From NCBI GenBank assembly GCA_964187785.1, contig OZ076413.1, positions 72,354,001 through 72,418,000 of the forward strand: a stretch of DNA of 64,000 nt. The letters run 5' to 3'. The stretch comes from Amphiscolops sp. MND2022. Lineage: Eukaryota. The position numbers were made by a program, and so were the translations under genes. Below are positions 7,270-40,356 of this stretch, piece by piece. Below the pieces are notes generated by a model. It ran no database searches, was not told the DNA's origin, and saw only the letters and a list, made by a program, of their open reading frames with translations. Position 1 is the first letter of the stretch; each line of letters starts with the position of its first letter.

Positions 7270-7849
7270 GTCAGTCTGCATTTCAATCAATTAACAACAT
7301 TCCATCTTTTCAGTTCTCGTATCCATAGCACGTCTATAAGGACCGCGTGTACTGAAACCGGGATATGGTTGTGAAGAGAGATGGGATTTTTTGCCATTAG
7401 TACATTGAGGGCGTGTCAGTGAAAAGAGTTTGGGTGTCAGTACGCTGCAAGCTGCAGAGCCTCCTTACAGTGTCAATAACGGTCCTATAAAGCAAAATAA
7501 ATTTCGAAAACATCGGTACGTGGTGGCTAATTTATAAAATAAGACAATGTGTCTCAAGTTTTATTGATCTTCGGAAGGTATTTGGTTTCATGGGAAGCAA
7601 CCTAGGGATTGTCACATTTATGAACAGCCCTGCCTCGTGAACTATAGCACTGATAAATGACTCTACGATTGCTTGTTGACAGCGTGTCGCTCTGCAGCCT
7701 CTGAGACAATCTTTTCAGTTATAAAATTGCCCTTTTCAATTCTGGGCCATCATTCCCGTGCAGCCCAACACAGTTTTGCTTGACATGGTCCCTTTTATTT
7801 GAGAAAGAAAAAGTTTTAAAAAATCAATTAACATTTTGAATCAATCATA

Positions 7850-8024
7850 AATAGTAATCGAATTCCCGTTCCTAATATATAAAAAAAATTTAAGCTCGTA
7901 AAATCATTAAAAAATTAATTTTCACAAAATTTTTTCACAAAATACCAATCAAACCATCTAAAAATTAGCCTTTTTTCGCAACTAAAAATTTAACAAAATA
8001 AAAATCGATGAACAAGTTTTTCCA
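7850..8024 (+). repeat. Polinton left TIR
   Basis: Reverse complement of 22155-22320, apart from a short internal duplication (ttcacaaaat) and a few substitutions. Confidence 0.92.
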
Positions 8025-8072
8025 ATGGAAAATTCATTGACCAAGATATAATCATGGAAAAATAACTATTAA

Positions 8073-8483
8073 ATGAATTATTTATCATTCAAAGAATTTG
8101 TTGATAAATATAGATTAAAAAATGAAGCAACTTCCAATGTAGAAATAAAAGAAATCTTAAAACTCATGAACACATCTTGTGGAATATATATGAGAGATGA
8201 TAAATTTATAACCACCAGTGGTATAGTTAACTTACATCCAACTAAAGGAACACATTGGGTTATGTTTACAAACCAAAACTATTTCGATTCATATGGCTGT
8301 CCACCACCACTAAATATAACAAAACAAATTAATAATGGTATCTATTCAGAATATCAAATCCAGAAAGACGGCAATTATTGTGCAGCGTATTGTTTGTATG
8401 TGTTGTATCTCACAAAAATTATAGGCTTCAAAAATGCAGTACTAAATTTATACTATCAAAATTTGTATTATCAAACTTTATGA
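8073..8483 (+). CDS. Adenain-like cysteine protease (Polinton PRO)
   Basis: GTHWV (His), YFDSYG (Asp) and QIQ...YCAAYC (Gln, Cys) in the adenovirus protease order. Confidence 0.9.
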   Translation: MNYLSFKEFVDKYRLKNEATSNVEIKEILKLMNTSCGIYMRDDKFITTSGIVNLHPTKGTHWVMFTNQNYFDSYGCPPPLNITKQINNGIYSEYQIQKDGNYCAAYCLYVLYLTKIIGFKNAVLNLYYQNLYYQTL

Positions 8484-8490
8484 ATAATAA

Positions 8491-8685
8491 ATGAAGAAAA
8501 TTAATAATTATTCAGCTCAATTTAAAATTATTCAAAAACCAATGAATACCAATGAGAATCAATTTGATGAGAAAATAATAGAAAAAAATACTCCAAAAAA
8601 TAATCAAAACAAACAATTATCAAAACAAAACCAAGAATTTATAAATAAGATATCCGCAAGTGGATTGAAACAATTTTTCTCTTAA
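8491..8685 (+). CDS. Small hypothetical viral protein (64 aa)
   Basis: Packed between protease and penton with 7-bp and 3-bp gaps, in the same orientation. Confidence 0.55.
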   Translation: MKKINNYSAQFKIIQKPMNTNENQFDEKIIEKNTPKNNQNKQLSKQNQEFINKISASGLKQFFS

Positions 8686-8688
8686 TAA

Positions 8689-9768
8689 ATGGATCTATCA
8701 AATTTTGTAACCTATGATAAAAAAGAATCTCTTTTGTTGAGTATTGCAAAATGTAATCAAGAAATTGTTGAAAATACACATTCTAAACCACAAGAAACTT
8801 TGGAATTTAAAATGAATAAACAAAAAGAATCTTTTTCATTTGATGTTCCCTTGGAGCTGCCAGAACAATGGATGATGGGAGTAACAAGTTTAGAAGTATA
8901 TAACAGTGTATATAATATTACCAGCAAAAATAACTCATTCCAGATACAACTAACAGACGAACAACTTAATGGGATTGATACAAAACTTGTAATGAATATT
9001 GAATACCTTCATAGAACCAAACAATCAAATTTTGTTAAAACAGTTTATAATTTAATGGATACCTCATTTAAAAATAAAAAGAAGCTTCTAAAAAATGATC
9101 TTGATAAAATCAAGTATATAATTAGTCAATATAAAAATGAAGAATGGCTGAACATTGACGAGAATACCAAATCCCTTGTGAATACAATACAAATCCCATA
9201 TTTCGAAACTATTGATCTCCCCATTATGAATGAGAAAATAGAAATAAAACTCCAACCTGGAATATATGAACTAACTGATCTGAACACAGCAATAGAACAA
9301 AAATTACGATATTACAACCAAGCAAATGGAGAATTTAAAATAAATGGTTTAAGTATTAACATTGAAGCAGATACAATATCAATGAAATCAGTTTTAACAA
9401 CTTCTAACCCCATTTATTTTAATTCAAAATTAAATGAACTTCTAGGATTCACAGATACAAACTATATAGAAGGAACTCATATATCAGAAAAACCAGTTAT
9501 GATAACAACGACAGACAAAGTTCATCTTAAATGTGATTGTGTAGATGGTTCAATTGTTAATGGTATACGAGAGCAAATTTTATTTTCATTTAATCTTAGT
9601 GCTCCTCCCGGATATAAAATAATAAAAGAACCTAACATTATTTTATACAAAAAGATAAACAAAACAAGGTTAGATAGTATTCAATTTTTCCTTGAGGATA
9701 TCAATCATAACCCAGTTGATTTCAACTCCGAAACATTAACCTTTACAATTCAAATCATCAAGATTTAA
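8689..9768 (+). CDS. Minor capsid protein (penton, single jelly-roll)
   Basis: N-terminal FSFDVPLEL..WMMGVTSLEVYNS and C-terminal HLKCDCVDGSIVNG.REQILFSF..PPGYKI..EP...PVDFNSETLTF, as typical of Polinton/adintovirus pentons. Confidence 0.8.
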   Translation: MDLSNFVTYDKKESLLLSIAKCNQEIVENTHSKPQETLEFKMNKQKESFSFDVPLELPEQWMMGVTSLEVYNSVYNITSKNNSFQIQLTDEQLNGIDTKLVMNIEYLHRTKQSNFVKTVYNLMDTSFKNKKKLLKNDLDKIKYIISQYKNEEWLNIDENTKSLVNTIQIPYFETIDLPIMNEKIEIKLQPGIYELTDLNTAIEQKLRYYNQANGEFKINGLSINIEADTISMKSVLTTSNPIYFNSKLNELLGFTDTNYIEGTHISEKPVMITTTDKVHLKCDCVDGSIVNGIREQILFSFNLSAPPGYKIIKEPNIILYKKINKTRLDSIQFFLEDINHNPVDFNSETLTFTIQIIKI

Positions 9769-9777
9769 TTCTATTAA

Positions 9778-10179
9778 ATGAGCTTTAATAAATTTAAAAA
9801 TAATTCATATTGTGTTGGTGGAAAACATTATTCCGCTACCACAAATATTCGTGGAGATATTACTCAAAATAAAAAAACTGGAGCAGCTGTTAAATTATTA
9901 AGAGGTACTTGTTCAAATTGTAAAAGAAATAAATCACTTATAGTATCTGATCAAACTATACAAGCAGAAGGATTAGGTGACTTTTTCCGAGGTATAGGAA
10001 AAGCCGCCAAGAATGTCGGAAAGAAAATTTTAAACAATCCTGGAAGAGCATTAGAACTCGCAGCTAATAACGGTACTGCAGCAGCAAGTAAAAATCCTCG
10101 AATGATAGCCGCAACTGCTCCTGATATTATAAAATTTGTTCATCAAGGAAAAGGTCTGTACTTGGGTAAAATTCATTGA
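9778..10179 (+). CDS. Putative virion core/maturation protein (Cys-containing N-terminus, EGLG|DFF amphipathic helix)
   Basis: C-x...CxxC N-terminal region, then AEGLGDFFRGIGKAAKNVGKKIL, a basic amphipathic segment after a Gly-x-Gly site. Confidence 0.6.
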   Translation: MSFNKFKNNSYCVGGKHYSATTNIRGDITQNKKTGAAVKLLRGTCSNCKRNKSLIVSDQTIQAEGLGDFFRGIGKAAKNVGKKILNNPGRALELAANNGTAAASKNPRMIAATAPDIIKFVHQGKGLYLGKIH

Positions 10180-10225
10180 TTTACAGCCGATCTGTAAATT
10201 AAATATTTTTTATGAATAATAAATT

Positions 10226-11206
10226 ATGTATTCAATTCATAATCGAGATGATTTAGAAAAATTAAAAAAATTGCAAGAATCAAAATCTTTAATAAAAGCT
10301 GAAAGATTAAAAGAGAAATTAGGGAAGCAAGACTTTCATTACGATATGGAAGAAGTTTTTGAACCTGTTACGGAAAATCAGAAAAAAAGTCAAAACCAAA
10401 CCAAGCTAGAATCTGAAAAGCAGATTCAAGCGTTACGTGATTCTACTCAAACTACAACACAAGCAATACGAGAATCGAGTAACGCTTTGAATAAAAATTT
10501 ACAAAAATCGATTAAAGAATATGATGAAATTACTTACCGTAATAATCAACTTGTTACAGATCTTGTGAATTCCAACCAAGTTGATTCTACTATAATCAAG
10601 ACAGTTTCTAATTTACTTAATGACAAAAACAAAAGTCAATTTAGTTTAGAACCTGTTACGCAAAGCGCCTTCGGTGAAGGTAATCCAAATTTATTCATAA
10701 TTAACCCTATTAATCCTCAACAAGTACTAATTAAAAATAATACACTAACCTTCTTGAGTAGTGGTAACAAATACAATTTAAATGATCCCGATCTTCAATA
10801 TTTTATAACTAATGCACAGCTAGACACGCAACCACAAAACGTGAATCTAATTTATTCTTTTTTGAATGATATGAAATATAATATAAATTATGGAGATAAA
10901 AAATCAAAGAGATATTATTTCATTAAAGATTTAATTAATCAATACATATATCAACATATTCCTTATCAACTATCCCAATTAGGAAGTGGATTTAATCAGT
11001 ATGTCTTCCTTCCATCGGATCCTGATGAGCTTGTAGATCAATTAAAACTACTCTATTTTGAAAAAGTAGGAGGAAATGTTAATCCTATGCTTAGTGAACA
11101 AATCATAGCAATTGCAGATAAACTTTTACAATACCAATGTATTACAACAAATCAACATCAAAACCTAGTAAGCACTTTTACTAAAAAGGATCAGTTTGTG
11201 GATTAA
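10226..11206 (+). CDS. Conserved Polinton coiled-coil protein with C-terminal LPSDP motif
   Basis: Coiled-coil N-terminus. GSG...LPSDPDELVDQLKLL...GGN...IIAIADKLLQY is a motif I recall from Polinton/adintovirus ORFs. Confidence 0.65.
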   Translation: MYSIHNRDDLEKLKKLQESKSLIKAERLKEKLGKQDFHYDMEEVFEPVTENQKKSQNQTKLESEKQIQALRDSTQTTTQAIRESSNALNKNLQKSIKEYDEITYRNNQLVTDLVNSNQVDSTIIKTVSNLLNDKNKSQFSLEPVTQSAFGEGNPNLFIINPINPQQVLIKNNTLTFLSSGNKYNLNDPDLQYFITNAQLDTQPQNVNLIYSFLNDMKYNINYGDKKSKRYYFIKDLINQYIYQHIPYQLSQLGSGFNQYVFLPSDPDELVDQLKLLYFEKVGGNVNPMLSEQIIAIADKLLQYQCITTNQHQNLVSTFTKKDQFVD

Positions 11207-12128
11207 ATATCTGGTATTGCAGATTGGATTCATTACATATCATATACTTACTCCCATTTTTATCTTCTAACCTATTTATTAAATAATTATAATTATCCCG
11301 CCATGCTTCTCTGCATAAACTTTTGAATTCATCATTAGACATATCAAAACCTGCTATGTCTCTATAAATGTGTTCAACATCTTTCAATGTTTGTTGAAAT
11401 AAAATTATAATATTACTATTGTTTCTAATTGTTCTTTTAGGTAAATCAAAATATGACTGTGATAAATAATAAACATCCAGATCATTATGTCTTCCCCTAG
11501 TAAAAAATGGATCTATTAATTTCTGATTGGAGTCTAACATATCATCAAATACAATACAACAATTTTGAAAATCTTGTATTGTTCTATCTTCTAGATCTTC
11601 GTCCACTGAAACATCTATTTCAATTTTATTGTATTGTTCCGGACTCCTCGTAATGATACATATCTTTTGTTCAGGATTATCTAAACGAATTAATTGTAAT
11701 TTGTTTAATAACAAATGGGTCTTACCACAAAATGATGGACCAACTATCAATGTTCGATTACAGCTTTGCTGGCCTCCGGTGAACATAATATTATCATTAT
11801 TATCAGTATCATCATTTGTAATAATATTATTTGTATAATTATTATTATCATGATTTTCATTATGATTTATAATTTCATTATTTGTATTATCATGATTGAT
11901 ATTACATCTTTTTAAATGTTTTGATAAATAAGTTTTATTTAATTCTTTATTACAGAATTCACATTTTACTTTTTTATTGAAACATTCTATACATGTACTA
12001 TACAATTTACCATTTCTATATTTGTAAAAATCTGTTTTCAGTATATTACACACTTTACATCTTTTTTTATTCTCACAATCGGAACAGACAGATTTTTCAT
12101 TACTTTTTCCACAAATTAAACACTTCAT
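11181..12128 (-). CDS. A32-like (FtsK/HerA) packaging ATPase 1 with N-terminal Cys-rich zinc-binding region
   Basis: Walker A GPSFCGKT, Walker B IVFDD, and TRGRH...YLSQ. The N-terminus has multiple CxxC pairs followed by an Asn-rich linker. Confidence 0.9.
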   Translation of the reverse strand: MKCLICGKSNEKSVCSDCENKKRCKVCNILKTDFYKYRNGKLYSTCIECFNKKVKCEFCNKELNKTYLSKHLKRCNINHDNTNNEIINHNENHDNNNYTNNIITNDDTDNNDNIMFTGGQQSCNRTLIVGPSFCGKTHLLLNKLQLIRLDNPEQKICIITRSPEQYNKIEIDVSVDEDLEDRTIQDFQNCCIVFDDMLDSNQKLIDPFFTRGRHNDLDVYYLSQSYFDLPKRTIRNNSNIIILFQQTLKDVEHIYRDIAGFDMSNDEFKSLCREAWRDNYNYLINRLEDKNGSKYMICNESNLQYQIFNPQTDPF

Positions 12129-12271
12129 TCATTTAGTAAAAAATCACTAAATCACTAAGCAAATTCACTAAGAGCATGATGTTTTAAGTGTAACCTTATT
12201 TGCTTAGTGAAAAATATATGCTCTTAGTGAATTTGCTTAGTGATTTTTTACTAAGAAATCAGACCCATTTT

Positions 12272-13279
12272 TTAATTACTTTTACTAAACCTGATTGCTT
12301 GATCAATTATAATTTTCTTAAATTCCTCTTTAAGTTGATCTGAAATTAGTGGTTGTTGCATGCGTTCAACGTAGTTGTCTATTTTAGATTCATTTACTTT
12401 GATTTTATTTTGTTTACAATAATATACATAATAAAAAGCTACATTAAAAGGTGTTATTTCAATTGTTTGATCTGACATATCTTCTAGGAATATTTTAAGT
12501 TTATTATATTCTTCACCTGTAAAGAAATAACTTTCATATTTTACATAATCTTCAGGACTCCATTTATGTTTAGTTGTATCATATACTACTTGATACTTTT
12601 GATTGAGTATTTTATACTTTTGTGATCTAGTATCAAATTCAATTACACCAAATTCTAACTGACTACGATATTGTTTCCATTTGAGATCTTCTTTGATTGA
12701 ATAAGTTTGTATTATGGTTTCAAAGAAACTATCTGGATTATTTGTGATATATAATTTAAAACAATTCTCTCTCACTATTGGGAGAACATCCTTTGCATAG
12801 TGAGCAAGGTATATAACTTGTATATTATTGTGTCTACCAAACCGAAATAAGTCTTCTACTTTAGTTCTGAGTTGTTTGAATGCTCCTGCATCATCTAAAA
12901 TTATAGTTCTATTAGCAAGTTTCTCTATTTCAATATTTTCTAACTGTAACAAAGGTATATAATTATCTTTAAACTCAGTCTCATCTCTACCGAATACTAT
13001 AAAATTTGTTTTAGTTTGATCTAAATAATACTTAAGGAAACTAGTCTTACCTGATCCACTAGTACCATACACCAAAAAATGACTATTTGTACTTGTGTTT
13101 GGTGGAGTAAGTTCTTGTTCTTCTTCTTTGTTAGTTAAATGAGAATATTTAAATCCCTTGAATTGTTTTAGTTTTTGGTATAATTTTTTATAATAATTAG
13201 GTTTAATATAATACCAATACACCCACAAAATTATAATAAAAATTACACATAATAAACCTATATTTAATTTTTTATTCAT
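12272..13279 (-). CDS. A32-like ATPase 2 with N-terminal transmembrane helix
   Basis: Walker A GTSGSGKT, Walker B IILDD, and RFGRH...YLAH. Hydrophobic N-terminal stretch IGLLCVIFIIILWVYWYYI. Confidence 0.85.
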   Translation of the reverse strand: MNKKLNIGLLCVIFIIILWVYWYYIKPNYYKKLYQKLKQFKGFKYSHLTNKEEEQELTPPNTSTNSHFLVYGTSGSGKTSFLKYYLDQTKTNFIVFGRDETEFKDNYIPLLQLENIEIEKLANRTIILDDAGAFKQLRTKVEDLFRFGRHNNIQVIYLAHYAKDVLPIVRENCFKLYITNNPDSFFETIIQTYSIKEDLKWKQYRSQLEFGVIEFDTRSQKYKILNQKYQVVYDTTKHKWSPEDYVKYESYFFTGEEYNKLKIFLEDMSDQTIEITPFNVAFYYVYYCKQNKIKVNESKIDNYVERMQQPLISDQLKEEFKKIIIDQAIRFSKSN

Positions 13280-13293
13280 TTATTAGGAAATAA

Positions 13294-14145
13294 ATGAATG
13301 AAAAGAAAGAAATTGTTAAAGAAATATTCTCTCCTATAATCAAGAAGTTTCAAAGAATTCAAATACAAACTCACTATAAAGATGAGTGTTGGAGTATTGA
13401 TCTGATAGACAGATCTAGCTTATCAAAATATAATAAAAACTACAAGTTCATTTTCACAATAATTGACAATCATACTAAGTATGCATGGGCCATTCCTCTT
13501 AAAGATAAGTCAGGAAAAAGTACAACAACTGCATTAAAAAGTCTTATCGAAAAAACAAAAAGAAAACCTGATAAAATATGGAGTGATAGAGGTAAAGAGT
13601 TTTATAATAAAACATTTTGGGATTTTCTTAAACAAAATGAAATTCAAATTTATTCAACTAATTCAGATTTAAAAGCTGTTTTTGTTGAACGATTCAATAG
13701 AACCTTATTAGATCTAATAAAAAAACCAATGTATATTGAAGGTAAAGCTTGTTGGTTGAATCATCTAGATACTGCTATGGAAAAATATAATAATCGTGTG
13801 CATGGAACTACTAAGATGACACCTTTTGAAGCTAATAATCAACCAATAGATCCACCTACTTTTGTTAATAAACCGAAACAACCCGAACTCCAAGTGGGAG
13901 ACTATGTAAGAGTTCCTGATAAACGCAATTTATATAGTAAAGGTTATACAACAAATTGGAATAGAGAACTTTTTAAAATACATGAAATTAATCCAACTAA
14001 CCCAGTTACGTATGGTTTAGTAGATGAAAACAACGAACAAATAGAAGGAAAATATTATGAACAAGAACTTTTAAGAAGTGTATTCAATTTTGAATCTAAC
14101 AACAAAACGTTAGAAAGTATGAATATTTTCCATCGTTATGAGTAA
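13294..14145 (+). CDS. Retroviral-like (rve) DDE integrase of Polinton type
   Basis: WSIDLID, WSDRGKEF and VERFNRT provide D, D and E. C-terminal VGDYVR...KGYTTNW...GKYYEQEL. The ORF is intact. Confidence 0.93.
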   Translation: MNEKKEIVKEIFSPIIKKFQRIQIQTHYKDECWSIDLIDRSSLSKYNKNYKFIFTIIDNHTKYAWAIPLKDKSGKSTTTALKSLIEKTKRKPDKIWSDRGKEFYNKTFWDFLKQNEIQIYSTNSDLKAVFVERFNRTLLDLIKKPMYIEGKACWLNHLDTAMEKYNNRVHGTTKMTPFEANNQPIDPPTFVNKPKQPELQVGDYVRVPDKRNLYSKGYTTNWNRELFKIHEINPTNPVTYGLVDENNEQIEGKYYEQELLRSVFNFESNNKTLESMNIFHRYE

Positions 14146-14162
14146 TTATATTTAAATAAATA

Positions 14163-14906
14163 ATGTCAATTCATAAATTTGGTTATAGTGCCGAAAGCCT
14201 ACAAAAAGATAAGATTGAGAATCTTGAAAAAGAATTCGAATCACAAACCAAATTATTTGATATAAAACTTAATGATGTTTCTGATAAATTAGAAACATAT
14301 ACAGCAAAGCTGGCTTCGTATATTAATGAATTTAAAGAACAAAATACCGAAATGCGTGTAGAAGAAATTCAATTTAAAAACGATGAAACACAAATCGTAG
14401 TCAATGCAAAGTTATTCTTAGACATTAACAAGAGTAAAGAAGATATAAAAATTAATTTAAAGTATTTAGAACAAGATATTAAAAATAAAATTTTAGAAAA
14501 GAAAAAAGAAATAATTTTGGATGCTGCCAAGTTAGTGGAAGAACAACAAACCATTTTACGTAATCATTTTGAGAGAAACCTTATTTCAGAATTGGAAAAA
14601 TGTAAAAATCAAACAGTCAAAGATGTTATACAACTATTGTACAACAAAGGATTGTTTGACTCATTTGAAAATAAAGACCAAATCTTTAATGAGTACTTAT
14701 ATTTTAGTGATGAATACTTGTTGGAAAAATACGGAACAGAAATAAAGACATCAGATGGTGTATATTATTTATCAGACTTGGACTATTCAACGAGAGAAGA
14801 TATTTTGAAGTGCTTAAAAATAGATGAATACAAAGATATAGTTGACCTTAAATATAGAATGAAACTAACCGATACTGAGATTAATTTTATACTTTTTGAA
14901 GAGTGA
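14163..14906 (+). CDS. Hypothetical coiled-coil viral protein (247 aa)
   Basis: Intact ORF packed directly after the integrase, rich in E, K and L. Confidence 0.65.
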   Translation: MSIHKFGYSAESLQKDKIENLEKEFESQTKLFDIKLNDVSDKLETYTAKLASYINEFKEQNTEMRVEEIQFKNDETQIVVNAKLFLDINKSKEDIKINLKYLEQDIKNKILEKKKEIILDAAKLVEEQQTILRNHFERNLISELEKCKNQTVKDVIQLLYNKGLFDSFENKDQIFNEYLYFSDEYLLEKYGTEIKTSDGVYYLSDLDYSTREDILKCLKIDEYKDIVDLKYRMKLTDTEINFILFEE

Positions 14907-14963
14907 ATACTTGTAAAATTTGAACTAAATACTTTATAAAATTAAGTTTTTATTTAAAGTTAA

Positions 14964-15486
14964 ATGAGTGAAAAATTGTACCCATGTTTACAACAAGATC
15001 AGAATCTTGATCTTAGATTAAAAGAAATAAATAGTTTTTTAATAGTTCAATTCAAAATATAAATGATATTCAAAATTTTTATAATCATGAAGCTAAAAAG
15101 TATAAAAAGAAATCTAAAACATACAAGCTTATAAATTGTTTAATTCAATCTATTGATGGAGTTTCAGTACTAGCAGTATCATCAACATGTGTCACGTTGA
15201 GTGTCACAGGAGTTGGACTTGTTGTTGTACCTATAGCAAGTGTTATAGGTCAGGTTTATGTATAATCAGTAAAATTGCTGGAGAGTACCTGAAAAGAAAA
15301 GAACAACACAATATTAAAAAATATACTCTTGCTGGTAGAACACTACACGACTACCAAAAACTACATTCAAAATGTTTAGAAGACAATAAAATTGATCTGA
15401 ATGAATACAACAAATTAAAACAAACTTACGATGTGTATAAAAACAATAAAACTGAACTAAATTCTGAGTTTACTTTTTTAGGATAA
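14964..15486 (+). pseudogene. Putative membrane-associated viral protein, split by two 1-nt frameshifts
   Basis: Manual joining gives MSEKLYP...KEINSF / NSSIQN...YKLINCLIQSIDGVSVLAVSSTCVTLSVTGVGLVVVPIASVIG / SGLCIISKIAGEYL..., which contains a long Gly/Val hydrophobic hairpin. Confidence 0.65.
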
Positions 15487-15547
15487 ATTTATTCAGTAAA
15501 AATAAAATCAGTATAAAACTTAAATCCTAATTTTTATTCCTATTTAA

Positions 15548-16778
15548 ATGGAATTATTCTCATTGAAAAATAAATATGCTATGGATAAACCCTATTCATA
15601 AAATTGATTTTATTAAATACTCACCTAGTAGTTTAGCTACAATCAACCATAATAATTCAAATATTTCCATCATCTTCCCAAGAGAAGATGCATATATTTG
15701 TTTACAAAACTCATACGTATCATTAGAATTTGAAGTTCTTAAAAATGATGATACAAGATATGCAGATGGTGATCAAATAAGTTTGGTTAATTTTGGACCC
15801 GTTGCTTTATTTAGTGAAGCTAAGTTAACTACTAGTTCAGGTAAACATTTAGAAAAAGTTGATAATCTACACCCAATTTCATTGATGTATAAACTTTTAA
15901 CATCTAATCAACAAACAAGTCAATTGATGTACGGATTTGAAGAATCACAAGCAACTAGAAGACGAGAACTAACAACAAACAAAACAGAAAAAGGAACCTT
16001 TTTTGTTAGAATTAGGTTGAGTGATATATTTGGATTTGCTGATCAAGAAAAAACAACTTATGGATTGGGTTATACTCTTACTTTAAAACGAAATAATAAT
16101 AACGACCCCATTATAAGGGACAATGGTGTAGATGCTGCAAAAATAAATATAAAAGACATCTCCTGGCATATTCCACACTACACACCATCAATGGAAAACC
16201 AACAACTTGTGATGGATCAAATATTAGACAAAGATCCAACTGAACTGTATTATATTGAACGAGTTGTTTTTAGAAAAGATGTTAACACCAATAACAATTG
16301 GACATTTGAATTAGGTAATAGTGGCGAATCAACACCAACTTTTGTAATTGTTGGCTTTCAAGCTAGAAATGAAATTGATTCACAAACACATGATAATGCA
16401 ATATTTGATCGTTTACCTGTTTCAAATGCTGTTTGTAAAATAGGATCAGAGAAATATCCCGATGATGGAATAGAATGTGATTATGATAGAGACAAATATG
16501 ATCAAGCATACAGTGAAATTGAAAACTTCTATTTGTTAAAAAGTGAAACTAACCTACTCAATCCGTTTATTGATTTGCATAAATTCAGGACAAATTATAA
16601 TTTCTATGTATTTGATTTATCCAAACAAAAAGACCCCATCGGGAGTCAACCTATTAGATTAGAATTCAAATTTAATGCTGCCATTGATGTAGCAGACTAT
16701 ATAGCTTATGCCCTAGTCCTAACACCTAAATTGATAAGTATCAGTAGTGATGGACAAAGGCATTTTGATTTATTATGA
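15548..16778 (+). CDS. Major capsid protein (double jelly-roll, hexon-like)
   Basis: ~410 aa. The likely start ATG 15548 (MELFSLKNKYAMDK) is shifted by an extra C in aaaccct into IHKIDFIKYSP. C-terminus FYVFDLSKQKD...PIRLEFKF...YALVL. Confidence 0.82.
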
Positions 16779-16873
16779 ATAAATATAATTTAAATATATA
16801 ATAATACAGCTTTGCTGATATGATAAATAAATTTATTTTTATAAATAATAATTATAAAATAATATATTTATTT

Positions 16874-19800
16874 TTATAAAACATGTGCTCGATCACTTAT
16901 CAACTTCACAAGTTGTTGATGGGTGAGTGCTTGTTTCCAATACCAAACACTGAAATAAATTTCTTCATCTGTTTTCTTGCTACCGTCAACATTTATAGTT
17001 AAATCTTTATAATACAAACCAATTAATTTCAAACAATATATACAAGGGCAATCACCTTTTTGTGTGTGTTTATCCCATGGTAAACTTTGTATTGGATTTA
17101 TATACAAACGTTTATCGTCAAAAGGATTCAAACACAACTTAGGTTGTTTTTCAACTGTGAGGTTGTGTAAATTAGATCTAATTGATATATTTGTAGAACT
17201 TGATGTTTCTGAATTAAACAATGAATTTTGATATTCTTCACATTTGGGAGCTTTTTGTATTCCTTTTTGTTTCGCTTTTTGAATGTTATTATTAATATTA
17301 TTATAACTAAAAGAATATGACTTTGATCGCAATGCTGTGAAAGTATCTAACACCAAAACTGGACTTGTTTCATTTTTCATTTTTCCTATAACTTTTTTGT
17401 TAATAGGATCATATAATTCATCACTTGGGTGTAATTCACTGAAATCAAATTCATCTTTGTTTTCTTGTAAAAAGTTTATTAGTTCTTGGTGGTTTGTATC
17501 AAAACTCAGAATAAAACTATCAGTATCCATGTAGTGTAGTTGTATGGATTGTTTCCAATATGGTTGTAATTTGTTATAATAAAATTCATACATTAATAGT
17601 TTTGATAGTTCTAAAACTGTAAAACCCAAATAAATTGGTTTATCAAAGACTGTTTTTTCTTTATCAAACTTACACACTAAACTTAGAATAATGATCCATG
17701 ATTCCTTTGAAACTTAACTTGGATTGTCTTTTTATTATTTGATCTATTTGAGAATGATCAATGAATTCTAGATTGGTTCTATCTCTTACATTTTCCATAG
17801 TCTTCCCAAAGAAAGCATTATTCATTAATTTATAAAGATCCTTTTCAAAGTTTGTTTTCGCTACTGTGCGTTTCTGAGTATTATGATCGATATATTTACC
17901 TAACCATGGACTTTGTTTAAACTTATAGATAGTATGTATCTTCGTTACTTTCATCCCTTGGTTAAGATAAAACTTAAACATCCTATAATGTATCATATAT
18001 TTCGATTTATTGGTTACATCACACATAAGTTTTGATGTTGGTTTGTAATTAGGTTGATTTATATTATTCATATAACCTGAGAAAAAGTTTGGATCTGCTT
18101 TTGTTTGATACGGACAAAAAGGAAAGTTTTTTGTTTTTTCTTTAATTTCAGCTGGATATTCTAAATCACATTCTATAAAGAATCCATATTCATTATCATC
18201 AGGTATTTGTAATAACTCTTCTACTAATTGCTCTAGATTGTAATTATCTGTGTAATTACACGGATTAAGAGGTAATATTTCGAATTCGCCAGTAGGAAGA
18301 TATTGACTCATTGCCCATCCATATAGATTATTTGCATCGATATATAAGATTTGTTTATTTTCATCAGATTGCACGTGACGATCTCCCATTACACTTGAAA
18401 TTCCTCCACGGATATTATTTTCAAGTAGTAGTAATAATTCTTCACCGGAGGGCAGCTTCGCTGTATCTTTTATAAAGTCTAACTTTATATTAGTCAACTT
18501 CAATCCTGCTTTCCATGTATAACCAGGTAGACTATAAGAGTACAAAGGATTAATTTTATATTCTCGTGTAGAACTTTCCACAAAGTTTTCAAATACATCA
18601 GCTAATTGAAGAACATCCATTTTTAAGTATAACATTGTTAATTCTCTTCCACTTTCAATTTTATTTTTATCAAATAATTCTTGGGTTCTTTTTATATCAT
18701 CATCTGATGGATAAGATTGTGTTAATGTTGACCAATAATCTTCTTTAGTTAAATTTAATGGTTCCTGAAAGTTATCAAGATTTAAGCATTCATAAGGATA
18801 AGCCAATTTCTTTTTAAATATTTTGTCTTTAAATCCATTTTCATCCATTATTGGGAAACTGTCTAAACTCTTAACTAATTTATCTAAACTACTACTTAGA
18901 AAACGATATGAATCTAAGAATATTAAGCAACCTACTTGAATTGATACATAATTTTCCATTGACTTTGGGATTATTTTTGGTTCATACCCCTTTTCGAAAG
19001 CTTGTATTAAGAGTTCTTGAAATATAAGATGACAATCATACCCAGAAAAGTTATGGAAAAATATAGGAACAAAACTTGATGACTTTTGTTTTACATTTAT
19101 GTTACATATATTATGAGCTGCTCCTCTGTATTTTCCTGTTAGATGATCATGATCTCTAACCTTATCCTCTGTAAAAGGCTCTTCACAAAGCCAACACTCT
19201 TCTGCAAGTTTGAATGATTCTTCTTCTTCAGGAGTTATTTGTAATTCTAACTTTGTTTTAAAATATTCATTTGCTTCTAGTTCTAATTTTAACATTTCCT
19301 TCACAAACCATTCGTTACAATCTGTTCCAAAGTGTGAACTATACTTGTTTCCAAATGTTGAAATTACATAAAAGCCTACTGCAATTGGAATTTGTTTAAA
19401 TAATACTTTGGCATCATTTCCAGGTTGATTAATACATTCAAAATCTGCATATACTCTTATTGGTACAGGAACTTCCATATAATAATCTTCAAACTTTAAC
19501 TGATTCTTCCAACTGAATGTGATATTAGTTGGTTGTTGATTTATACATCTTTCCATATGATCAAGTAGAACCGGTTCTGAACTGAATGCTGTTAAACATC
19601 TTCTACACACCCATCGCATGTGTGAATCTTTATTTATTAAACAATGCAACTTTCTTATTAGACAATAGTGATTTTCATACAATAACAAATCTATTTGTGG
19701 TTGGAAGTAATTTTTGTTAATATGAATTGGTGTTAAAACTGCTCCGGTGAGTTCAAAAACATTTACGTTCAAGTTATTAAGTTTTTCGAACTTGGGAATG

Positions 19801-20696
19801 TCTTTAACTTTCATAGGGAATTCCAATCCTTTCAGGTTAAGTTTATTCATATGAATAACATATTTTGATGTTATATTTTTATTATCCTCAACTGGAAATA
19901 AATATGCTAATATACACCATACAAAACAAAATTGATCATTATTTTTTATATTTATAATTGACTGATTCGTTTTATATTTTGGTGGTAACTCAATATATGA
20001 AGATGCTCGAATATCATTAACTTTATATATTTCTAATATAACTTCTTCTATTTCTTGAAATTGAAAACCTGATCCTTCTAATTGTTCATCATCTAATTTC
20101 TGTATTAATGTGTTATGAGTATCTTGTTGTGTACCGAAGGTGCTTTGCATGTGATTATATATTAAATCTGATTTTATCCATCTTTTAAATACTTCTTCTT
20201 CTCCATTGATTATTTTTGAAAATTTAGCTAGATAACTCAATTGATATTTATATCGGGGAAAATAATTTTTACTAAGTAAGTCATTTATGTTATGTTTAAG
20301 ATTTTCAGTTGGATTTATTTTCAGTTTAATGTATGTGTTTTCATTCACAATTATATTTACTCCATTACCGGAGGGCAGCAAAGCTGTACCGAAATCTGTA
20401 ATACAGCTTCGCTGGCTTTGTATACTGTTTTGTTGACGGTTTTGTAAATGAATTTCACTTTGGAAATGTCTTGTTGTATCAGATATATATTTACTACAAT
20501 CTTCACATCATATTTTATTGATGCGGTTTTTATGTTCATCTGAATTTAAATGAGAACTTTTATCTGAGATAGGCATATATAAATTACATTTTTTACAATA
20601 ATATTGATTTAATTTTTCAAGATGTTTTACTGATTTTAGATGATCAGACTTGAAAGCTTTTTTATAATTTAAATTACAAATACTACAATTCTCCAT
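16874..20696 (-). CDS. polB: Protein-primed family B DNA polymerase (frameshifted), with N-terminal zinc fingers and an endonuclease-VII-like insert
   Basis: YADFEC (Exo I), FHNFSGYD (Exo II), YIDANNLYG (Pol A), KLMNNAFFGKT (Pol B), YMDTDS (Pol C). The CWLC...VRDHDHLTGKYRGAAHNICN insert is present. Frameshift at ~17675 and further shifts at 20380-20510. Confidence 0.93.
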
Positions 20697-20879
20697 TTCT
20701 ATTTATTAAAGAAAAAATAGTTTAATTAAAAATTTTTCAATTATAATTTTTATAAAAAATTGGTGAAAAATATTTTAATTTTGTGGTGGTAAGGTATTAA
20801 AGCTTGCCACAGATTTGTATGATAAATACAGCTTTGCTGGCATCGCATATTTCATTTAAGAAAATTTTTATAATCTGTA

Positions 20880-21290
20880 ATCAGAAACTCAAGACCTTTC
20901 CAATGATGTATCACACATGGCAATATCTTAAACTTTTATAATCTCTACATGTTTAAGGGTTTCAGGTTTGAGATGGTATAGTTTCAGTTGTGGGTACCCA
21001 ATCATGAAAATATTCAAAATCTGTGATCTCCAACTCAAGACCTTTCCAATGATGTATCATACACTGTGATATGTTGAACTTTTATAATCTCTACATGTTC
21101 AAGGGTTTCAGGTTTTTCGAAGTTTCAGATAGTATACATTTGTACTAGGTTTTCGAATTGTATCTAGATAGATAGCCCTTGTCGAGACCTTTTCAATGGT
21201 ATATTATACTTTGTTGTAACTCAAATATTCGTTGAGTTATGGCTTTTTTCCTGACCTATTAGTAATCTCTACATGTTTAAGAGTGAAAGT
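20880..21290 (+). repeat. Three degenerate ~150-bp direct repeats in the Polinton right subterminal region
   Basis: AAGACCTTTCCAATGATGTATCA and TAATCTCTACATGTT recur near 20890, 21037 and 21185. Confidence 0.75.
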
Positions 21291-21464
21291 CCGAATGGAA
21301 AAAGTCTCTTTGCCAGTTTCATTTCTTCGGCCATGCTGTTTGCTGTGACTGTAGAGAGAAAAGTGAAAAATGAAATTTTGGTGCATTCCGAATGCACCTC
21401 AAGCATTAGAGTGCACAGGCAAGCCTTATTTGCTCAAAGCGCAAGATAGTGCTTTCAATATCTC

Positions 21465-21812
21465 GGATTCCACGACCATACCTTTAACCGTGCAAAATTG
21501 GCAAATTACGTCATTTGTCCCGGATTCCACGGATTTAGTCGTGGATTCCAGTAACAAATGCTTAGCTGTACGAACTGTCGGCATGCAGCGGTGTCCCGGA
21601 TTCCACAAAAACGTAAGTTTTGCGAAATGAACCAATCAGATTGCAGAAATCATAAATTTCCTGGATTCCACGACCTTATGCTTGACGCGATACGCGGCAT
21701 CTCTTCTTGAATTAAATTCAACTGTCGTGGAATCCAAGACACGCTTAACATCAAAGAGAAGTTTTGTCCTGGATTCCACGACTTTTCTCAATTTTCGTGT
21801 CCCGGATTCCAC
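21465..21812. repeat. Array of eight GGATTCCA(C) motifs
   Basis: Copies at ~21465, 21522, 21543, 21598, 21663, 21727 (inverted), 21771 and 21804. Confidence 0.8.
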
Positions 21813-22154
21813 GAAAACAGCAAAATAGCTTGCCTGTGCACTGTAATGAGGTCAGACGACCATCTGGTGCGTGAAATTTTGTTTGAAATTTATATGGTGG
21901 TAATTTTTCCAACAGTTGTGGTGTCCACTTGTGCACACCATTGAATTTATCAATAATGAAAAATGTGTTCATCATTTTTATATGTAATTTTTCAATGGGT
22001 AAAAATGAAGAAAAAAACTCGTTTTCAATTTGGACACTTGTGTTTTCTACTTGAACGCATTTGGTAAGTATTCATTTTTTCTTCACGATGTGGTAATAAT
22101 TCTATTATACGTCGATGGAGGTTAGTTCAATTTTGGTTTGTGACAAATACTTCT

Positions 22155-22320
22155 TTGGAAAATTTGTGCATCGATTTTTATTTTGTTAAATTTTTAGTTG
22201 CGAAAAAAGGCTAGTTTTTAGATGGTTTGATTGGTATTTTGTGAAAAAAGATTAATTTTTTAATGATTTTACGAGCTTAAATTTTTTTTATATATTAGGA
22301 ACGGGAATTCGATTACTACT
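22155..22320 (-). repeat. Polinton right TIR
   Basis: Ends in GATTACTACT, followed immediately by the TSD ATCATA. Confidence 0.92.
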
Positions 22321-22399
22321 ATCATAGAAAGCATAATAATCGGAGAACCATTCCAGAATCAGTTTCTCTAACCCCTCGAGGAAGTGGGAATTCCTCAGT

Positions 22400-23900: not shown

Positions 23901-25752
23901 TTTTTTCTGCAACTGGAGTGTGCTTACTTTACTAGCAGCAAGCAGTGTTAACGAACCCTCAGCTTGAAATTTCAGAGCTGTTCATCTTTGGAAACGGTGA
24001 GCTATTCAGCCTGATCTTAGTCTCATTCTTTTCTCAATTTCAACAACAACTTGATCGACCGGAACCACCAAATTTCTCTCTTTTTGGAGACCACTCTTCT
24101 GAACAACACTTTTGGGCAGTTTCCGATTAACATTTCATTGAATGTCTCCATTAGTGTTGCGGTTCCTCGTCAAAAAATTTTGTCCAATAATTAGATCGCC
24201 AATCATCGCCTAAGGGCGGCTTTTCTCAAGACTGGGGTTGAATTGTGAACTTCTGATCTGAAACGACTGCTCCGGTTTCTCTTGCTAACAAATTTTTTCT
24301 TCGATGTACTCAATTAGTTTGAACACAAATTTTCAAAGACTGTGAATTTTCAAACAGTGACATGGAAATGATCATGCTATAGTTATATTTAAAATAGTTG
24401 AATACCAATTGAAGGCTTTTATTGTTTGTTGCTGATTTTTTGTGTAGATATTGATAAATGTTTACAGCTCAACATTGCCGAGCTCATCGTTTTTCATGAT
24501 ATTTTGTTAGTAAACACTAGTCTCGGGGTAGAGAGTCTCATAAATGAGAGCCTCGGAAAATGGTGAAAACGCCATGCAGCCAATTGCCTTTTAGTCTCGT
24601 TTTTCGGATCAGTCTCAAATTGTAAAGCAGTGACTATGGTGGGAATTTCTATCAAATGTATGCACGCCAATTAATTGCACAGGGGATGATATTCTTTGGC
24701 CTACCAACGTACCAATAAAATAGTGAAAGTATTCATTCGACTGTTAAGCTTACTGTAAGTATATTTCAATAAAAGCAAAACCCATGAAAGGTCGCATCGA
24801 GTCAAAAATGGCCGGCCGTGTACAGACAAAAGCGCCCGAATGCAAAACGTCTCAATACTTTTTGATTTGATTTCACAACCTCTAATTAATCGTAATTGAA
24901 GGTGTTCCAATACAAGATTAACTCACTGGTAATTCCAGATTTCACATTCTCGCACCTAACAAATGTCAATTGAAAATTACTTAAACTGCTAATTTTGGCA
25001 TTTCTGAACAAACTATATCAATTTTTTAATAAATAAATTTGTCAATAAACTGGTTTGAGATGAAATACTGATAATTATTTTATTGGAGCGAGGAACTTGA
25101 AATTGGTTTTGAAGAAGAGTCAACAAATCTTTTGTAGTCTTTGATTGGGGCGCTTTTGACTGCGTATTTTGGGCGCGTTTGTGTGGGGCGCCTTCGGACA
25201 GGGATAACAAATTCACGAAGATTACTACTGTAACAGTCGTCTTTTTAATATGTTCAATTTGTATCTCTTCGAATGCTAGGAGCGACTGTTAGGGAGTTAT
25301 TTGGTGCTACGTAATATTTTGAATATTTACTTTTTGGTCACTGTGTGGTACACCTTGAGTAAAGAAAAACTTTATTGCTTTTAGAAAAGAACTTTAATTA
25401 TTATATTTATCTTGATAGCAGATAGAATGAAAAACAACAAATAAATACAGTATAAATTACTAACATATTTTTGGGCAAAATGATGGATGAAAATCAGCAA
25501 CTGATCTGTATTAGAGAAAATTTGCTTACTGAGCAAATTAGGTAAGTTCTCGTTTATTGTAAAAAAAAACGAGACGAGGAGGGAAATGATGATTAATGTC
25601 TAGGTACCAGATGACAAAGACGTTTGGGAAATATGTTGAGTAATATCTCGGTTAACTGTTGAATCACTATGAGCGATTAAATGTATAAATGTATATACTA
25701 GAAGAAACAAACTAAAATGAAAACTGCAGGCATAAATTTAACAGCGCAGCTT

Positions 25753-25920
25753 AGCAACGGTGCATTGATGAAGCAAGATTGAGCAAAAATTTTACAACAT
25801 AGCAACGGCGCCTTGATAAAGCAAAAATGAGCAAAAATTTTAGAACATAGCAACAGCGCCTTGATAAAGCAAAAATGAGCAAAAATTTTACAACATAGCA
25901 ACGGCGCCTTGATAAAATAA
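25753..25920. repeat. 48-bp minisatellite (~3.5 copies)
   Basis: AGCAACGGCGCCTTGATAAAGCAAAAATGAGCAAAAATTTTACAACAT in tandem, with no spacers. Confidence 0.9.
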
Positions 25921-25954: not shown

Positions 25955-26199
25955 TAAGCTGTTTTGCAAAAGTGCCTAGTCATTTCCTGTCTTGTACGAG
26001 GAATGCTTTGTCATATTACTCCCGGAAATGTACGTTTGCGTCCCGCAAATGAGGATCACAGGTCCATGAGCTCATGGAGAGACTTCAGAAGGGGGTCGCA
26101 CCTGCGACACGTTCGTAGTCCTTGCTCTCGTCGGTGTACGCCGGCCAGGTCACAACAGCGATAGACTTCTAGTAGTTCGTGGGTAAGAAGAATACGTTT
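25955..26199 (-). repeat. 3' LTR (the part shared with the 5' copy)
   Basis: Matches 40377-40621 with 8 substitutions in 245 bp by manual comparison. Confidence 0.85.
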
Positions 26200-26411
26200 C
26201 GTTGGGTTACCAGGGGCAGGTATTTACTAAGTGCTTGTGGGACTGAGGGGTTTTTGTCAGGGTGTAGCAAGTGTAACAAGGACTTCACGTGGTCATTGAT
26301 GGTATCACTGGAAGCTGTAGGGAGACAATGAATGACGTCAAACAGTAGCTGCTTCGGGGCCATGAATTCATCAAGAATCAAGGGCATTTTCTTAAAATGG
26401 TAAAAAACCAT
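26056..26411 (-). CDS. J-domain (DnaJ/Hsp40-like) accessory protein with Cys-rich C-terminus, one frameshift near 26200
   Basis: LFDVIHCLPTASSDTINDHVKSLLHLLHPDKNPSVPQALSKYLPLVTQ / KRILLTHELLEVYRCCDLAG...TCRRCDPLL*. It has the HPD motif and J-domain helix spacing. Confidence 0.75.
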
Positions 26412-26416
26412 ATTCT

Positions 26417-26812
26417 TTAATGCGGGACAAATCGTTGTGTGGACGTAATATTTGTGAGGGCCGTTACGTCCTCAGACCATGAAAACGTTCGTTTTAAAAG
26501 TTCCTCGTTTACTTCATTGAGTGTATTGACACGGGCGCGAAGCGACTGTATTTGGTCTTTCAGGTCAGCGTTGAGCTGCTCGAGTGACTTGACGTCTTGT
26601 TGGCGAGAAGCGAGTTGTTCCTCCACGTCTTCCAGACGTTGACATAACTGGCGTGCAGATGTCATTTCGGCATGGACAACGTGAACATAATGGTCACCAT
26701 CTATTTGGCACTGGATCTCGAAGTCCTCAGTATCGGGGTGCACTCTAGAGGGCACGGGTTCACACAGGCAATTTTCGGTAGGTTTGTCCACTTGCGCCAC
26801 AGCATCAATCAT
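26417..26812 (-). CDS. Accessory ORF with leucine-zipper-like coiled coil (131 aa), intact only in unit 1
   Basis: Heptads LEDVEEQLASRQQDVKSLEQLNADLKDQIQSLRARVNTLNEVNEELL. Its start overlaps the upstream ORF stop (ATGA). Copies 2 and 3 carry a 5-nt deletion. Confidence 0.65.
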   Translation of the reverse strand: MIDAVAQVDKPTENCLCEPVPSRVHPDTEDFEIQCQIDGDHYVHVVHAEMTSARQLCQRLEDVEEQLASRQQDVKSLEQLNADLKDQIQSLRARVNTLNEVNEELLKRTFSWSEDVTALTNITSTQRFVPH

Positions 26813-27120
26813 GGCGGGCGCTGTTTGGGTGGGATTTTCATGGGTGGAAGGGGGCGGTAAGTGAATATCGGTGGTAGGCCTTGTGAAATTACGGCGGGAC
26901 GAATCCGCGTCCAGACGCTGAAGTACAGCGGTCCCGCTATGCGAGTTGACTCGCAGGACCCGGTAGTCGTCATCGTGGAGAATGCGGACCGTATCAAACC
27001 TGGTAATCTTGGATACACGGCCAGAACTCGTGTATACGGGAACTCCGGCAGGGCGCTTTGCAGGGAACCTGAAAAAAAATGGGCGTTATAACGTTCAAAG
27101 ATATAAAAATATAGAAACAT
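26809..27120 (-). CDS. Accessory ORF of unknown function (103 aa, Pro-rich C-terminus)
   Basis: Intact in unit 1, coupled to the next ORF by an ATGA overlap. A possible acceptor TTTTTTTCAG lies near its start. Confidence 0.5.
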   Translation of the reverse strand: MFLYFYIFERYNAHFFSGSLQSALPEFPYTRVLAVYPRLPGLIRSAFSTMTTTGSCESTRIAGPLYFSVWTRIRPAVISQGLPPIFTYRPLPPMKIPPKQRPP

Positions 27121-30100: not shown

Positions 30101-31789
30101 CTGGCGGGCTTCACCAACTGAGTAAACCGGGAATAAATGATTGACAGTAGGCACACGACGGAAAATTTGTTCTAACGATGGCGTTAGGGCAACAGTAGCA
30201 TAACAGGGGTCTGGATTGGATTCGCAGAAATCCATGTCAGGGGCTAGAACCAGGTCGCCTTGATTCAGCGAGAGAACGCTGGAACAGCTCGGACGAATAA
30301 CACAAGCCTGACAGTGAATGGTGGAAACAGACACGCCGTGCTGACGGCTGTCATTCTTGATCCTTAAAAAGGGGTCGCGCGATATGACATGGTAGAGGCC
30401 ATCTGCCAGGTAGAAGGCTTGAGGGGCTTGAGGGAAGTAACACAGACTTCACCAGACAGTTTGGCAAAGCAGGGATGTCATGATTATATAGGAGGGAGCC
30501 CAAACACAGGAGTGTTTCATCGGTCGTTGTTGAGAACCCTTTGAGACACAATTTGATCCGGTTATTGTGTATGTAACAAGGACTTCACGTGGTCATTGAT
30601 GGTATCACTGGAAGCTGTAGGGAGACAATGAATGACGTCAAACAGTAGCTGCTTCGGGGCCATGAATTCATCAAGAATCAAGGGCATTTTCTTGAAATGG
30701 TAAAAAACCATATTCTTTAATGCGGGACAAATCGTTGTGTGGACGTAATATTTGTGAGGGCCGTTACGTCCTCAGACCATGAAAACGTTCGTTTTAAAAG
30801 TTCCTCGTTTACTTCATTGAGTGTATTGAGACGGGCGCGAAGCGACTGTATTTGGTCTTTCAGGTCAGCGTTGAGCTGCTCGAGTGACTTGACGTCTTGT
30901 TGGCGAGAAGCGAGTTGTTCCTCCACGTCTTCCAGACGTTGACATAACTGGCGTGCAGATGTCATTTCGGACAACGTGAACATAATGGTCACCATCTATT
31001 TGGCACTGGATCTCGAAGTCCTCAGTATCGGGGTGCACTCTAGAGGGCACGGGTTCACACAGGCAATTTTCGGTAGGTTCGTCCACTTGCGCCACAGCAT
31101 CAATCATGGCGGGCGCTGTTTGGGTGGGATTTTCATGGGTGGAAGGGGGCGGTAAGTGGATATCGGTGGTAGGCCTTGTGAAATTACGGCGGGACGAATC
31201 CGCGTCCAGACGCTGAAGTACAGCGGTCCCGCTAGGCGAGTTGACTCGCAGGACCCGGTAGTCGTCATCGTGGAGAATGCGGACCGTATCAAACCTGGTA
31301 ATCTTGGATACACGGCCAGAACTCCGGCAGGGCGCTTTGCAGGAAGCCTGAAAAAAATGGGCGTTATAACGTTCAAAGATATAAAAATATAGAAACATCC
31401 AGAATACCTTTACAATTTGAACTTAGGGCACGTAGTTACATTATTCTCAAGTGAAGTGCGATTTTCAATTTTTTTAATTACAATGGTGAGATGATGATCA
31501 TTGAGGGGACACGCTAACGTGTACAAGTACAGGGTTCCAAAAAGGAACAGGTACAGTGATGTACCAGTGGGGGAACACGGAAACGTGCTAAAAGGGGTCC
31601 ACTATTAAGCGGAACTAGTACGAAACGTACGTTAGAGAGGGGCACATAACATGCACTTGATGGGGCACAAAAATGCGTTGATTATACAATGTAAGTAGAG
31701 GGCAAACACTTTGCAGTCTATGTAGTAGACTCTGTGTATAAGGGAGCGGTGATATCTGGATAAACACGTAGGGGGACAGGTGGTTGAGA

Positions 31790-34021: not shown

Positions 34022-34258
34022 CTAAAAGAAGACTACAGTGAAAATTCGGGACGCAGATGGAATTAGAGTATAGATAGCATTTAATATGACTGGCTTTGTT
34101 TGCTATCAGGGGAATTAAACTGCGTCAAATCCGGTGGTAGTTTAGCTTGTCATAAGGGTTGTGCCTTCCGCTGCGCAGCAGTGTTATCTCTGAGTTGACG
34201 ACGAGGTTGAACAGACGTGCCCGGGGGTGTGAGTGAGCGGGAAGCGCGTTCAACTTCT

Positions 34259-39590: not shown

Positions 39591-39593
39591 ATA

Positions 39594-40286: not shown

Positions 40287-40356
40287 ATATTCAAATAAAA
40301 TTATAATAAGTATTTTTTTCTATGTACTCACGATTTGATAAAAAAAACTTAGGGGT

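Follow-up and report, generated by a model that had tools for sequence, protein, structure and literature searches.

The 64,000-nucleotide stretch analysed here, positions 72,354,001 to 72,418,000 of contig OZ076413.1 in the Amphiscolops sp. MND2022 assembly GCA_964187785.1 (hereafter the window), carries a Polinton of 14,471 bp. The bounds of the element, 7850-22320, were set from its termini and a 6-bp target duplication; it coincides with a low-GC island whose limits are the inverted repeats. Within it lie two adjoining minus-strand open reading frames, already singled out by the first-pass annotation as a pair of packaging ATPases and borne out here. One encodes a protein of 315 amino acids (aa) with a zinc-finger N-terminus (the zinc-finger ATPase), the other a protein of 335 aa with an N-terminal transmembrane (TM) helix (the TM-ATPase). 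The Polinton family to which this copy belongs holds two anciently diverged, conserved ATPases of the A32 type.

Both proteins have the Walker A, Walker B and GRH motifs that had been read in them (GPSFCGKT and GTSGSGKT, with Walker B ending in DD). The description of the genes as intact stands for the frames alone, which are open; relative to sister copies, each gene lacks a single codon without loss of frame, at about residue 180 in the TM-ATPase and about residue 282 in the zinc-finger ATPase. The membrane helix proposed for the 335-aa protein was recovered at residues 7-25, with a Kyte-Doolittle score of 2.42 against 0.63 for the next best segment. The multi-CxxC N-terminus of the 315-aa protein is likewise present and reads as five CxxC pairs plus an HxxxC; three zinc sites are predicted over residues 3-75 (11904-12122), followed by an Asn-rich linker, and residues 54-75 give a weak zf-C2HC match, below the cut-off. 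The TM-ATPase exceeds the Pfam Pox_A32 cut-off (E 1e-5) and possesses a Walker A, a Walker B, an arginine finger and a polar sensor. The 315-aa window protein taken alone has no A32 match in Pfam; the profile of the zinc-finger ATPase aligns with A32 families at 98% probability, its features match Atlas A32 clusters (0.93-0.94), and this protein combines the A32 motif set with the family profile. The two ATPases share 27% identity over 100 residues; at the profile level they align over 118 columns with a probability of 98%.

Two features picked out by the first-pass annotation turned out to be ordinary. His in place of the conserved Gln is indeed found at residue 160 of the TM-ATPase (the zinc-finger ATPase has Gln as its sensor), and it is not special, being common in lone A32s: it occupies the sensor position in 6/8 lone A32 rows from the genome (sister family included) and in 5/6 rows from IMG/VR, 11/14 overall. 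Being so frequent, it cannot be taken to mark a protein with changed or lost function. The A32-type family is defined by Walker A and B, an arginine finger and a polar sensor that is "mostly glutamine" (PMC11703096); His160 fits this definition because the sensor is required to be polar and only mostly glutamine. The fusion to zinc fingers did not prove unusual either, since Atlas clusters join Pox_A32 with such domains: among clusters with Pox_A32, zf-met occurs in 12% of members and zf-C2H2 in 39% (score under 0.9).

The pair is a fixed property of the family. The genome searched, 1.07 Gb, contains a subfamily A, which includes the window copy, and a subfamily B, the TM-ATPases of the two being 65% identical. 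At least 120 scored matches to the TM-ATPase, at 88-100% identity, were obtained from 2256 candidates, and at least 150 matches to the zinc-finger ATPase from 2886. The zinc-finger ATPase lies directly downstream of the TM-ATPase in 30/30 subfamily A loci, the window included, and likewise in 20/20 subfamily B loci, one of which shows the finger part only; another 15/15 loci chosen by their TM-ATPase also hold the pair, bringing the total to 65/65. The reverse test used loci chosen by the zinc-finger ATPase (20 of the 150 matches, mostly not beside a listed TM match): at least half of the TM-ATPase was present in 18/20 and a piece of it in 2/20. The TM-ATPase frame is whole in 25/30 subfamily A and 19/20 subfamily B loci, the integrase frame in 22/30 and 18/20, the zinc-finger ATPase frame in 17/30 and 16/20, and both ATPase frames together in 13/30 and 15/20, the loci having been picked by TM score, which favors the TM-ATPase in these counts.

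Both ATPase genes are under purifying selection. When the window copy is compared with subfamily B copies, in pairs that are mutually non-independent, the median pairwise ratio of nonsynonymous to synonymous divergence (dN/dS) is 0.18 for the TM-ATPase, at a dS of 1.26, with 0.17 in the helix and linker, 0.16 in the core and 0.19 in the C-terminal part. The corresponding medians are 0.32 for the zinc-finger ATPase (fingers 0.30, core 0.21) and 0.19 for the integrase. Upstream of its ATG, the TM-ATPase has the sequence context also found before the capsid and integrase genes. Within subfamily A, copies of the integrase differ from one another far more than do copies of the adjoining ATPases (median dS 0.22 vs 0.05), a contrast suggestive of recombination at the integrase.

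A profile search of 1.84 billion representatives returned 306 matches to the TM-ATPase at E 0.001 or better. Among the 150 matches listed, many of them fragments, full-length homologues at 25-53% identity retain the whole layout of the protein; a second search gave eight more homologues. In an alignment of 44 rows, Asp129, Arg149, His160, Arg170 and Asn172 are invariant, and a helix scoring at least 1.6 precedes Walker A by 47-71 residues in 34 of the 37 assessable rows (7 rows were not assessable, and two of the three exceptions seem to be short at the N-terminus); no row out of 19 in the other alignment reached that score. Trees, run on A32 rows from the genome and the environment without the reference A32s of named viruses, support the TM clade at 88/86 with a long-branch neighbour and at 100/100 without it. 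On this alignment and these trees, the TM-ATPase falls in a deeply diverged clade of A32 proteins, with identities down to 25-33%, of which the predicted membrane helix is a conserved trait, as are Walker A and B, the arginine finger and the helical C-terminal domain, and in which the His sensor is invariant. The TM-ATPase of the window family nests within a clade of environmental sequences on short contigs; of the homologues looked up, those at 25-45% identity are on contigs of 1-8 kb and one at 53% is on a contig of 28 kb. A local duplication, that is, a clade made of only the Polinton family's two ATPases, was rejected (approximately unbiased (AU) test, p=8e-11), and a sister relationship of the whole TM clade to the zinc-finger ATPases was not (AU p=0.12). 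The pair is thus neither a recent duplicate nor an eroding capture, outcomes of a kind that the first-pass annotation had named as counting against its proposal: it is fixed in the family, it is under purifying selection, it is missing from the sister and other Polinton families examined in the genome, and its helix is that of a deep clade.

Several other searches returned little. Scans of viral contigs for the TM-ATPase gave no true member (two weak partial matches in one scan), metagenome scans and a phage tblastn search gave no matches, and a genome-contig scan gave two weak P-loop matches, one of which, on checking, was a small GTPase-like gene. A search of the genome with distant homologues revealed no further TM-ATPase family among the scored candidates. 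Against viral contigs, the zinc-finger ATPase alignment found no match and the core alignment found five lone A32s. Searching solved structures by sequence was uninformative.

Structural modelling places the TM-ATPase among packaging motors. The model (predicted local distance difference test (pLDDT) score 82; predicted template modelling (pTM) score 0.57) has a long N-terminal helix, a loose linker, a motor core and a helical C-terminal domain, and its core adopts the RecA-like FtsK-HerA fold. With an earlier model of pLDDT 64, the best solved match was STIV2 B204 (Z 12.9, root-mean-square deviation 3.1, 160 residues aligned), after which came VirB4, HerA and TcpA at Z 11-11.8, with EssC, Zot and FtsK also within 9.9-11.8. 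Both models match viral A32s first, namely those of medusavirus, a virophage and an adintovirus (E 3e-10 to 1e-7), over the TM-ATPase core only.

At least six more Polinton-type families with an A32 gene are present in the genome (loci L068-L127), and some of these are represented by many copies that are almost identical. The first-pass annotation had taken a single ATPase as the norm for Polintons, and this agrees with what we found: six other families have one ATPase per locus at the nine loci read, about 9-10 kb each way and most without a completeness check, a procedure that showed two ATPases in a subfamily B control. The nearest of them, the sister family, has a capsid protein 41% identical to that of the window family and the same neighbouring genes. 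Over the roughly 17 kb between its inverted repeats, in two copies and in two more that were scanned, it has one ATPase and no TM-ATPase. This lone ATPase is 36-40% identical to the core of the zinc-finger ATPase, is without fingers, and adjoins a homologue of the 326-aa gene, as the zinc-finger ATPase does. A tree of 40 rows unites the zinc-finger ATPases with the lone ATPases of the sister family (support 94/95). Because it holds the position of the single sister ATPase, the zinc-finger ATPase is, as far as sequence can tell, likely to be the inherited ordinary packaging motor.

The remaining features of the element are collected in Table 1. Its terminal repeats of about 170 bp, 95-99% identical, and 6-bp duplication are those of a Polinton, and so are the retrovirus-like integrase and the capsid module, in which the capsid protein itself is recognised by Pfam. 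Two further genes encode what we take to be the penton and the protease, and a third presumably encodes a protein-primed polymerase, all three labels coming from motifs and position. The polymerase gene is broken in the window copy, its motifs were found by eye, and it has no Pfam polymerase match. A gene for a 247-aa protein (14163-14906, plus strand) follows the integrase in subfamily A and lies beyond the polymerase in subfamily B, so that the two subfamilies differ in gene order. A protein of 200-240 aa with a glycine-rich hydrophobic stretch, frameshifted in the window (about 14950-15486, plus strand), is common to the dual-ATPase family and the single-ATPase sister family (L111:8687-9400; L124:7619-8236) and is a possible candidate for a membrane-active virion protein. 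The gene-poor right arm contains a 117-bp direct repeat (20853-21115). Outside the Polinton, the window contains a 48-bp tandem repeat and an AT-rich 10-bp repeat (25752-25916; 44673-44852), as well as a broken long terminal repeat retroelement (25955-40621, minus strand) with 245-bp direct repeats (97%), reverse transcriptase, integrase, a Baculo_F envelope-like gene and a block of about 2.1 kb present three times.

Table 1. Features of the Polinton in the window (positions in the window; strand where applicable)
Feature	Position	Strand	Basis and remarks
Left target-site duplication, 6 bp	7844..7849		Hexamer identical to the right copy, 22321-22326, outside both termini
Left terminal inverted repeat	7850..8025		Arms 7852-7922/22248-22318 (99%) and 7930-8025/22154-22249 (95%)
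Likely maturation cysteine protease	8073..8483	+	His/Asp/Gln/Cys motif by eye; no Pfam match; sister-family homologue 37-40%
Likely minor capsid (penton) protein	8689..9768	+	Motif and position; no Pfam match; sister-family homologue 33-36%
Small basic conserved protein	9778..10179	+	Subfamily B homologue 77%; sister-family homologue 31-47%
Conserved 326-aa open reading frame	10226..11206	+	Converges on the zinc-finger ATPase gene and overlaps its end; in the sister family the homologue immediately follows the single ATPase
Zinc-finger A32-type ATPase, 315 aa	11181..12128	-	Three predicted zinc sites, Asn-rich linker, core 124-315, Gln sensor
TM-ATPase, 335 aa	12272..13279	-	Predicted helix, linker, A32/FtsK-HerA core 68-234, helical C-terminal domain 242-333
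Predicted transmembrane helix of TM-ATPase, residues 7-25	13205..13261	-	Hydropathy; basic stretch after the helix (net +5)
Retrovirus-like integrase	13294..14145	+	Pfam rve E 4e-14; head-to-head with TM-ATPase, 14 bp apart
Double jelly-roll capsid protein	15576..16778	+	Pfam PF21738 E 5.7e-20
Presumed protein-primed DNA polymerase B, in several pieces	16874..20696	-	Motifs by eye; Endonuclease_7 E 1e-4, just under cut-off
Right terminal inverted repeat	22154..22320		Pairs with the left arms

An 11-bp hairpin (CAGC, three bases, GCTG) occurs seven times in the Polinton (at 11761, 14302, 16807, 18453, 20376, 20404 and 20829) and not once in the other 49.5 kb of the window (Markov expectation 0.01). 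It is polymorphic among copies, as short inserts that come and go, often in frame, and four 10-kb stretches of the sister family, which has no fingers, do not contain it. The two subfamilies have different bases at one position of its core, in step with the helix of the third finger (48 loci vs 19). Judged by its distribution, the hairpin is a candidate packaging or binding signal, and the hairpin/finger pattern weakly backs a split of labour between the ATPases. This is one contrast, between two related groups, and we do not accept the concordance as evidence of co-evolution.

The two ATPases are likely to divide the work. The reading that we tentatively prefer, at a little short of an even chance, is that the TM-ATPase is a membrane-tethered second motor serving a membrane step of assembly, beside a zinc-finger motor that selects the genome. 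In such a scheme the zinc-finger ATPase would likely be the ordinary, genome-selecting packaging motor and the TM-ATPase, likely, a second ring motor at the membrane step of particle assembly. Since homologues carry up to about 130 residues before the helix, a cleavable signal peptide is unlikely, and the helix would rather be an uncleaved signal anchor; the basic flank on its C-terminal side in the window family (net +5) would leave the motor facing the cytosol or nucleoplasm, outside the lumen. Each ATPase could form an active ring, because both keep the cis motifs and the trans-acting arginine. The TM-ATPase would then hydrolyse ATP in a ring, build or dock the packaging vertex on a lipid membrane enclosed in, or wrapping, the capsid, and take DNA from the zinc-finger motor or work beside it. 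What favors a motor at a membrane step is that related viruses push their DNA through lipid: ATPases of the A32 type work for viruses whose DNA passes across a lipid membrane (PMC11703096), and at the vertex of PRD1 and STIV2 small membrane proteins have been proposed as the pore (PMC4124505). In those two viruses, the job that we propose for the TM-ATPase would fall to separate small membrane proteins.

A number of observations weigh against this scheme. The link between the TM-ATPase and particles is an indirect one, from sequence and a model. The sister family has a capsid, a penton, a protease and a single ATPase, and does without a TM-ATPase; packaging in this group therefore does not need one. 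The glycine-rich hydrophobic protein is found in the dual- and single-ATPase families alike, so that contact with a membrane is not tied neatly to possession of a second ATPase. The charge flanking the helix is mixed in distant homologues, so that the proposed topology may not hold across the wider family. The grouping of the zinc-finger ATPases with the sister lone ATPases is open in a 24-row tree, obtained by removing 16 near-copies and long branches from the 40-row one. Finally, the pair has been seen in one host genome only. One could envision a fuller version of the two-motor system, in which the TM-ATPase represents an undescribed, ancient, membrane-anchored A32 clade, the zinc-finger motor reads the scattered hairpin and the membrane motor completes the transfer, giving a lipid-containing particle or a genome pump; as a whole, this version seems to us doubtful.

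A single membrane helix joined to an FtsK-HerA motor is also the layout of export and coupling pumps (PMC11703096), and the TM-ATPase might act like inovirus gp1/Zot, TrwB or FtsK, driving the element's genome, or particles already loaded, through the nuclear envelope or from cell to cell, independently of packaging. By prediction the motor does carry a membrane anchor (hydropathy and model, and 34/37 homologues), VirB4, HerA, TcpA, EssC, Zot and FtsK all come after B204 among the fold matches, the gene stands head-to-head with the integrase, and the family is very numerous. We nevertheless consider a pump of this kind unlikely. Both in sequence and in fold the TM-ATPase is nearest to virion packaging ATPases, not to coupling proteins: its matches to TrwB_AAD_bind (15.8 bits) and FtsK_SpoIIIE (14.6 bits) are below the cut-offs and far below that to Pox_A32. 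No partner channel or relaxase was recognised among the open frames of the Polinton, several of which have no known family, and the TM-ATPase is the sole open frame of at least 90 aa with a strong membrane helix in the window copy. The strict same-strand adjacency and co-retention of the two ATPases, and their complementary accessory domains, would suit a mixed ring, tethered by its TM subunits, in which the zinc-finger subunits choose the genome; there is also the case of medusavirus, with three A32s, two of them in virions (PMC6450098). Such a ring is rather improbable all the same, as both ATPases retain the full cis and trans motifs, their sequences give no sign of an obligate heteromer, they share so little identity, and in the sister family the zinc-finger type functions on its own. 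In mixed rings, one side of the motif set is often lost.

It is also conceivable, although we think it quite improbable, that the TM-ATPase is an old capture from another virus group with a host-facing job (membrane remodelling, defence or counter-defence) and no part in DNA transport. Its place among environmental sequences on short contigs, its absence from the six other A32-bearing families examined in the genome and a C-terminal domain that lies outside the fold matches all speak for such an origin. Set against this, the motor motifs, the trans-acting arginine included, are invariant across the clade, selection on the TM-ATPase is as strong as on the integrase, and an ancient duplication is likewise not rejected. 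As for a recent duplicate or a dead passenger without a role, the many broken copies might be taken to suggest one, but the integrase is broken about as often, a local duplication was rejected, and a dN/dS of 0.18 at such a dS makes this explanation barely credible.

In its terminal repeats, 6-bp duplication, integrase, presumed polymerase, major capsid protein, likely penton and protease, and A32-type ATPase, the element resembles the Polintons/Mavericks (adintoviruses, Polintoviricetes), with a gene set of the kind described in PMC4028283, PMC8502044 and PMC11161782. It differs in having two ATPases instead of one. The Polinton ATPase is treated as one gene in the accessible text of PMC8502044, 10.64898/2026.10.13.758929, PMC11161782, PMC6450098, 10.1101/2023.08.22.554363 and PMC11703096, and likewise in that of PMC4124505, PMC4028283, PMC8328091, 10.64898/2026.06.19.733378, PMC11131425 and PMC9952930. 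With the A32/FtsK-HerA packaging ATPases (PF04665; STIV2 B204, vaccinia A32, Sputnik V3) the TM-ATPase shares the fold, Walker A and B, the arginine finger and the polar sensor; beyond these it has a membrane helix at its N-terminus and a helical domain of 90 residues at its C-terminus. Among viral members, the portion of PMC11703096 available reports membrane domains for filamentous phages only. The membrane-anchored pumps (inovirus gp1/Zot, FtsK, TrwB/TcpA) join a membrane helix to the same motor fold, whereas the TM-ATPase is A32-like in sequence and its Polinton adds a capsid module and a second ATPase. Medusavirus, a giant virus, also has more than one A32 per genome; the window element, in contrast, retains its second ATPase in a genome of 14.5 kb. 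A literature search whose scope left aside subscription papers, Repbase and supplements found no report of a dual-ATPase Polinton or of the TM clade. The dual-ATPase module is a real, selected and apparently undescribed variant of the Polinton packaging module; its anatomy is well supported, and its function is our inference.

The findings bear on an open question, how Polintons select their genomes, package them and carry them from one cell to another; Polinton particles, according to the accessible part of 10.1101/2023.08.22.554363, have not been observed so far. A small genome that keeps a membrane-anchored second motor under selection offers a concrete handle on the problem, namely a single protein whose location can be tracked, and the host genome supplies a built-in control in the sister family with one ATPase. 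The prediction is that lipid and the TM-ATPase would be found in particles, or else a pump at the nuclear envelope. The TM clade may, in addition, bear on how the A32 motors of larger viruses are attached to the inner membrane.

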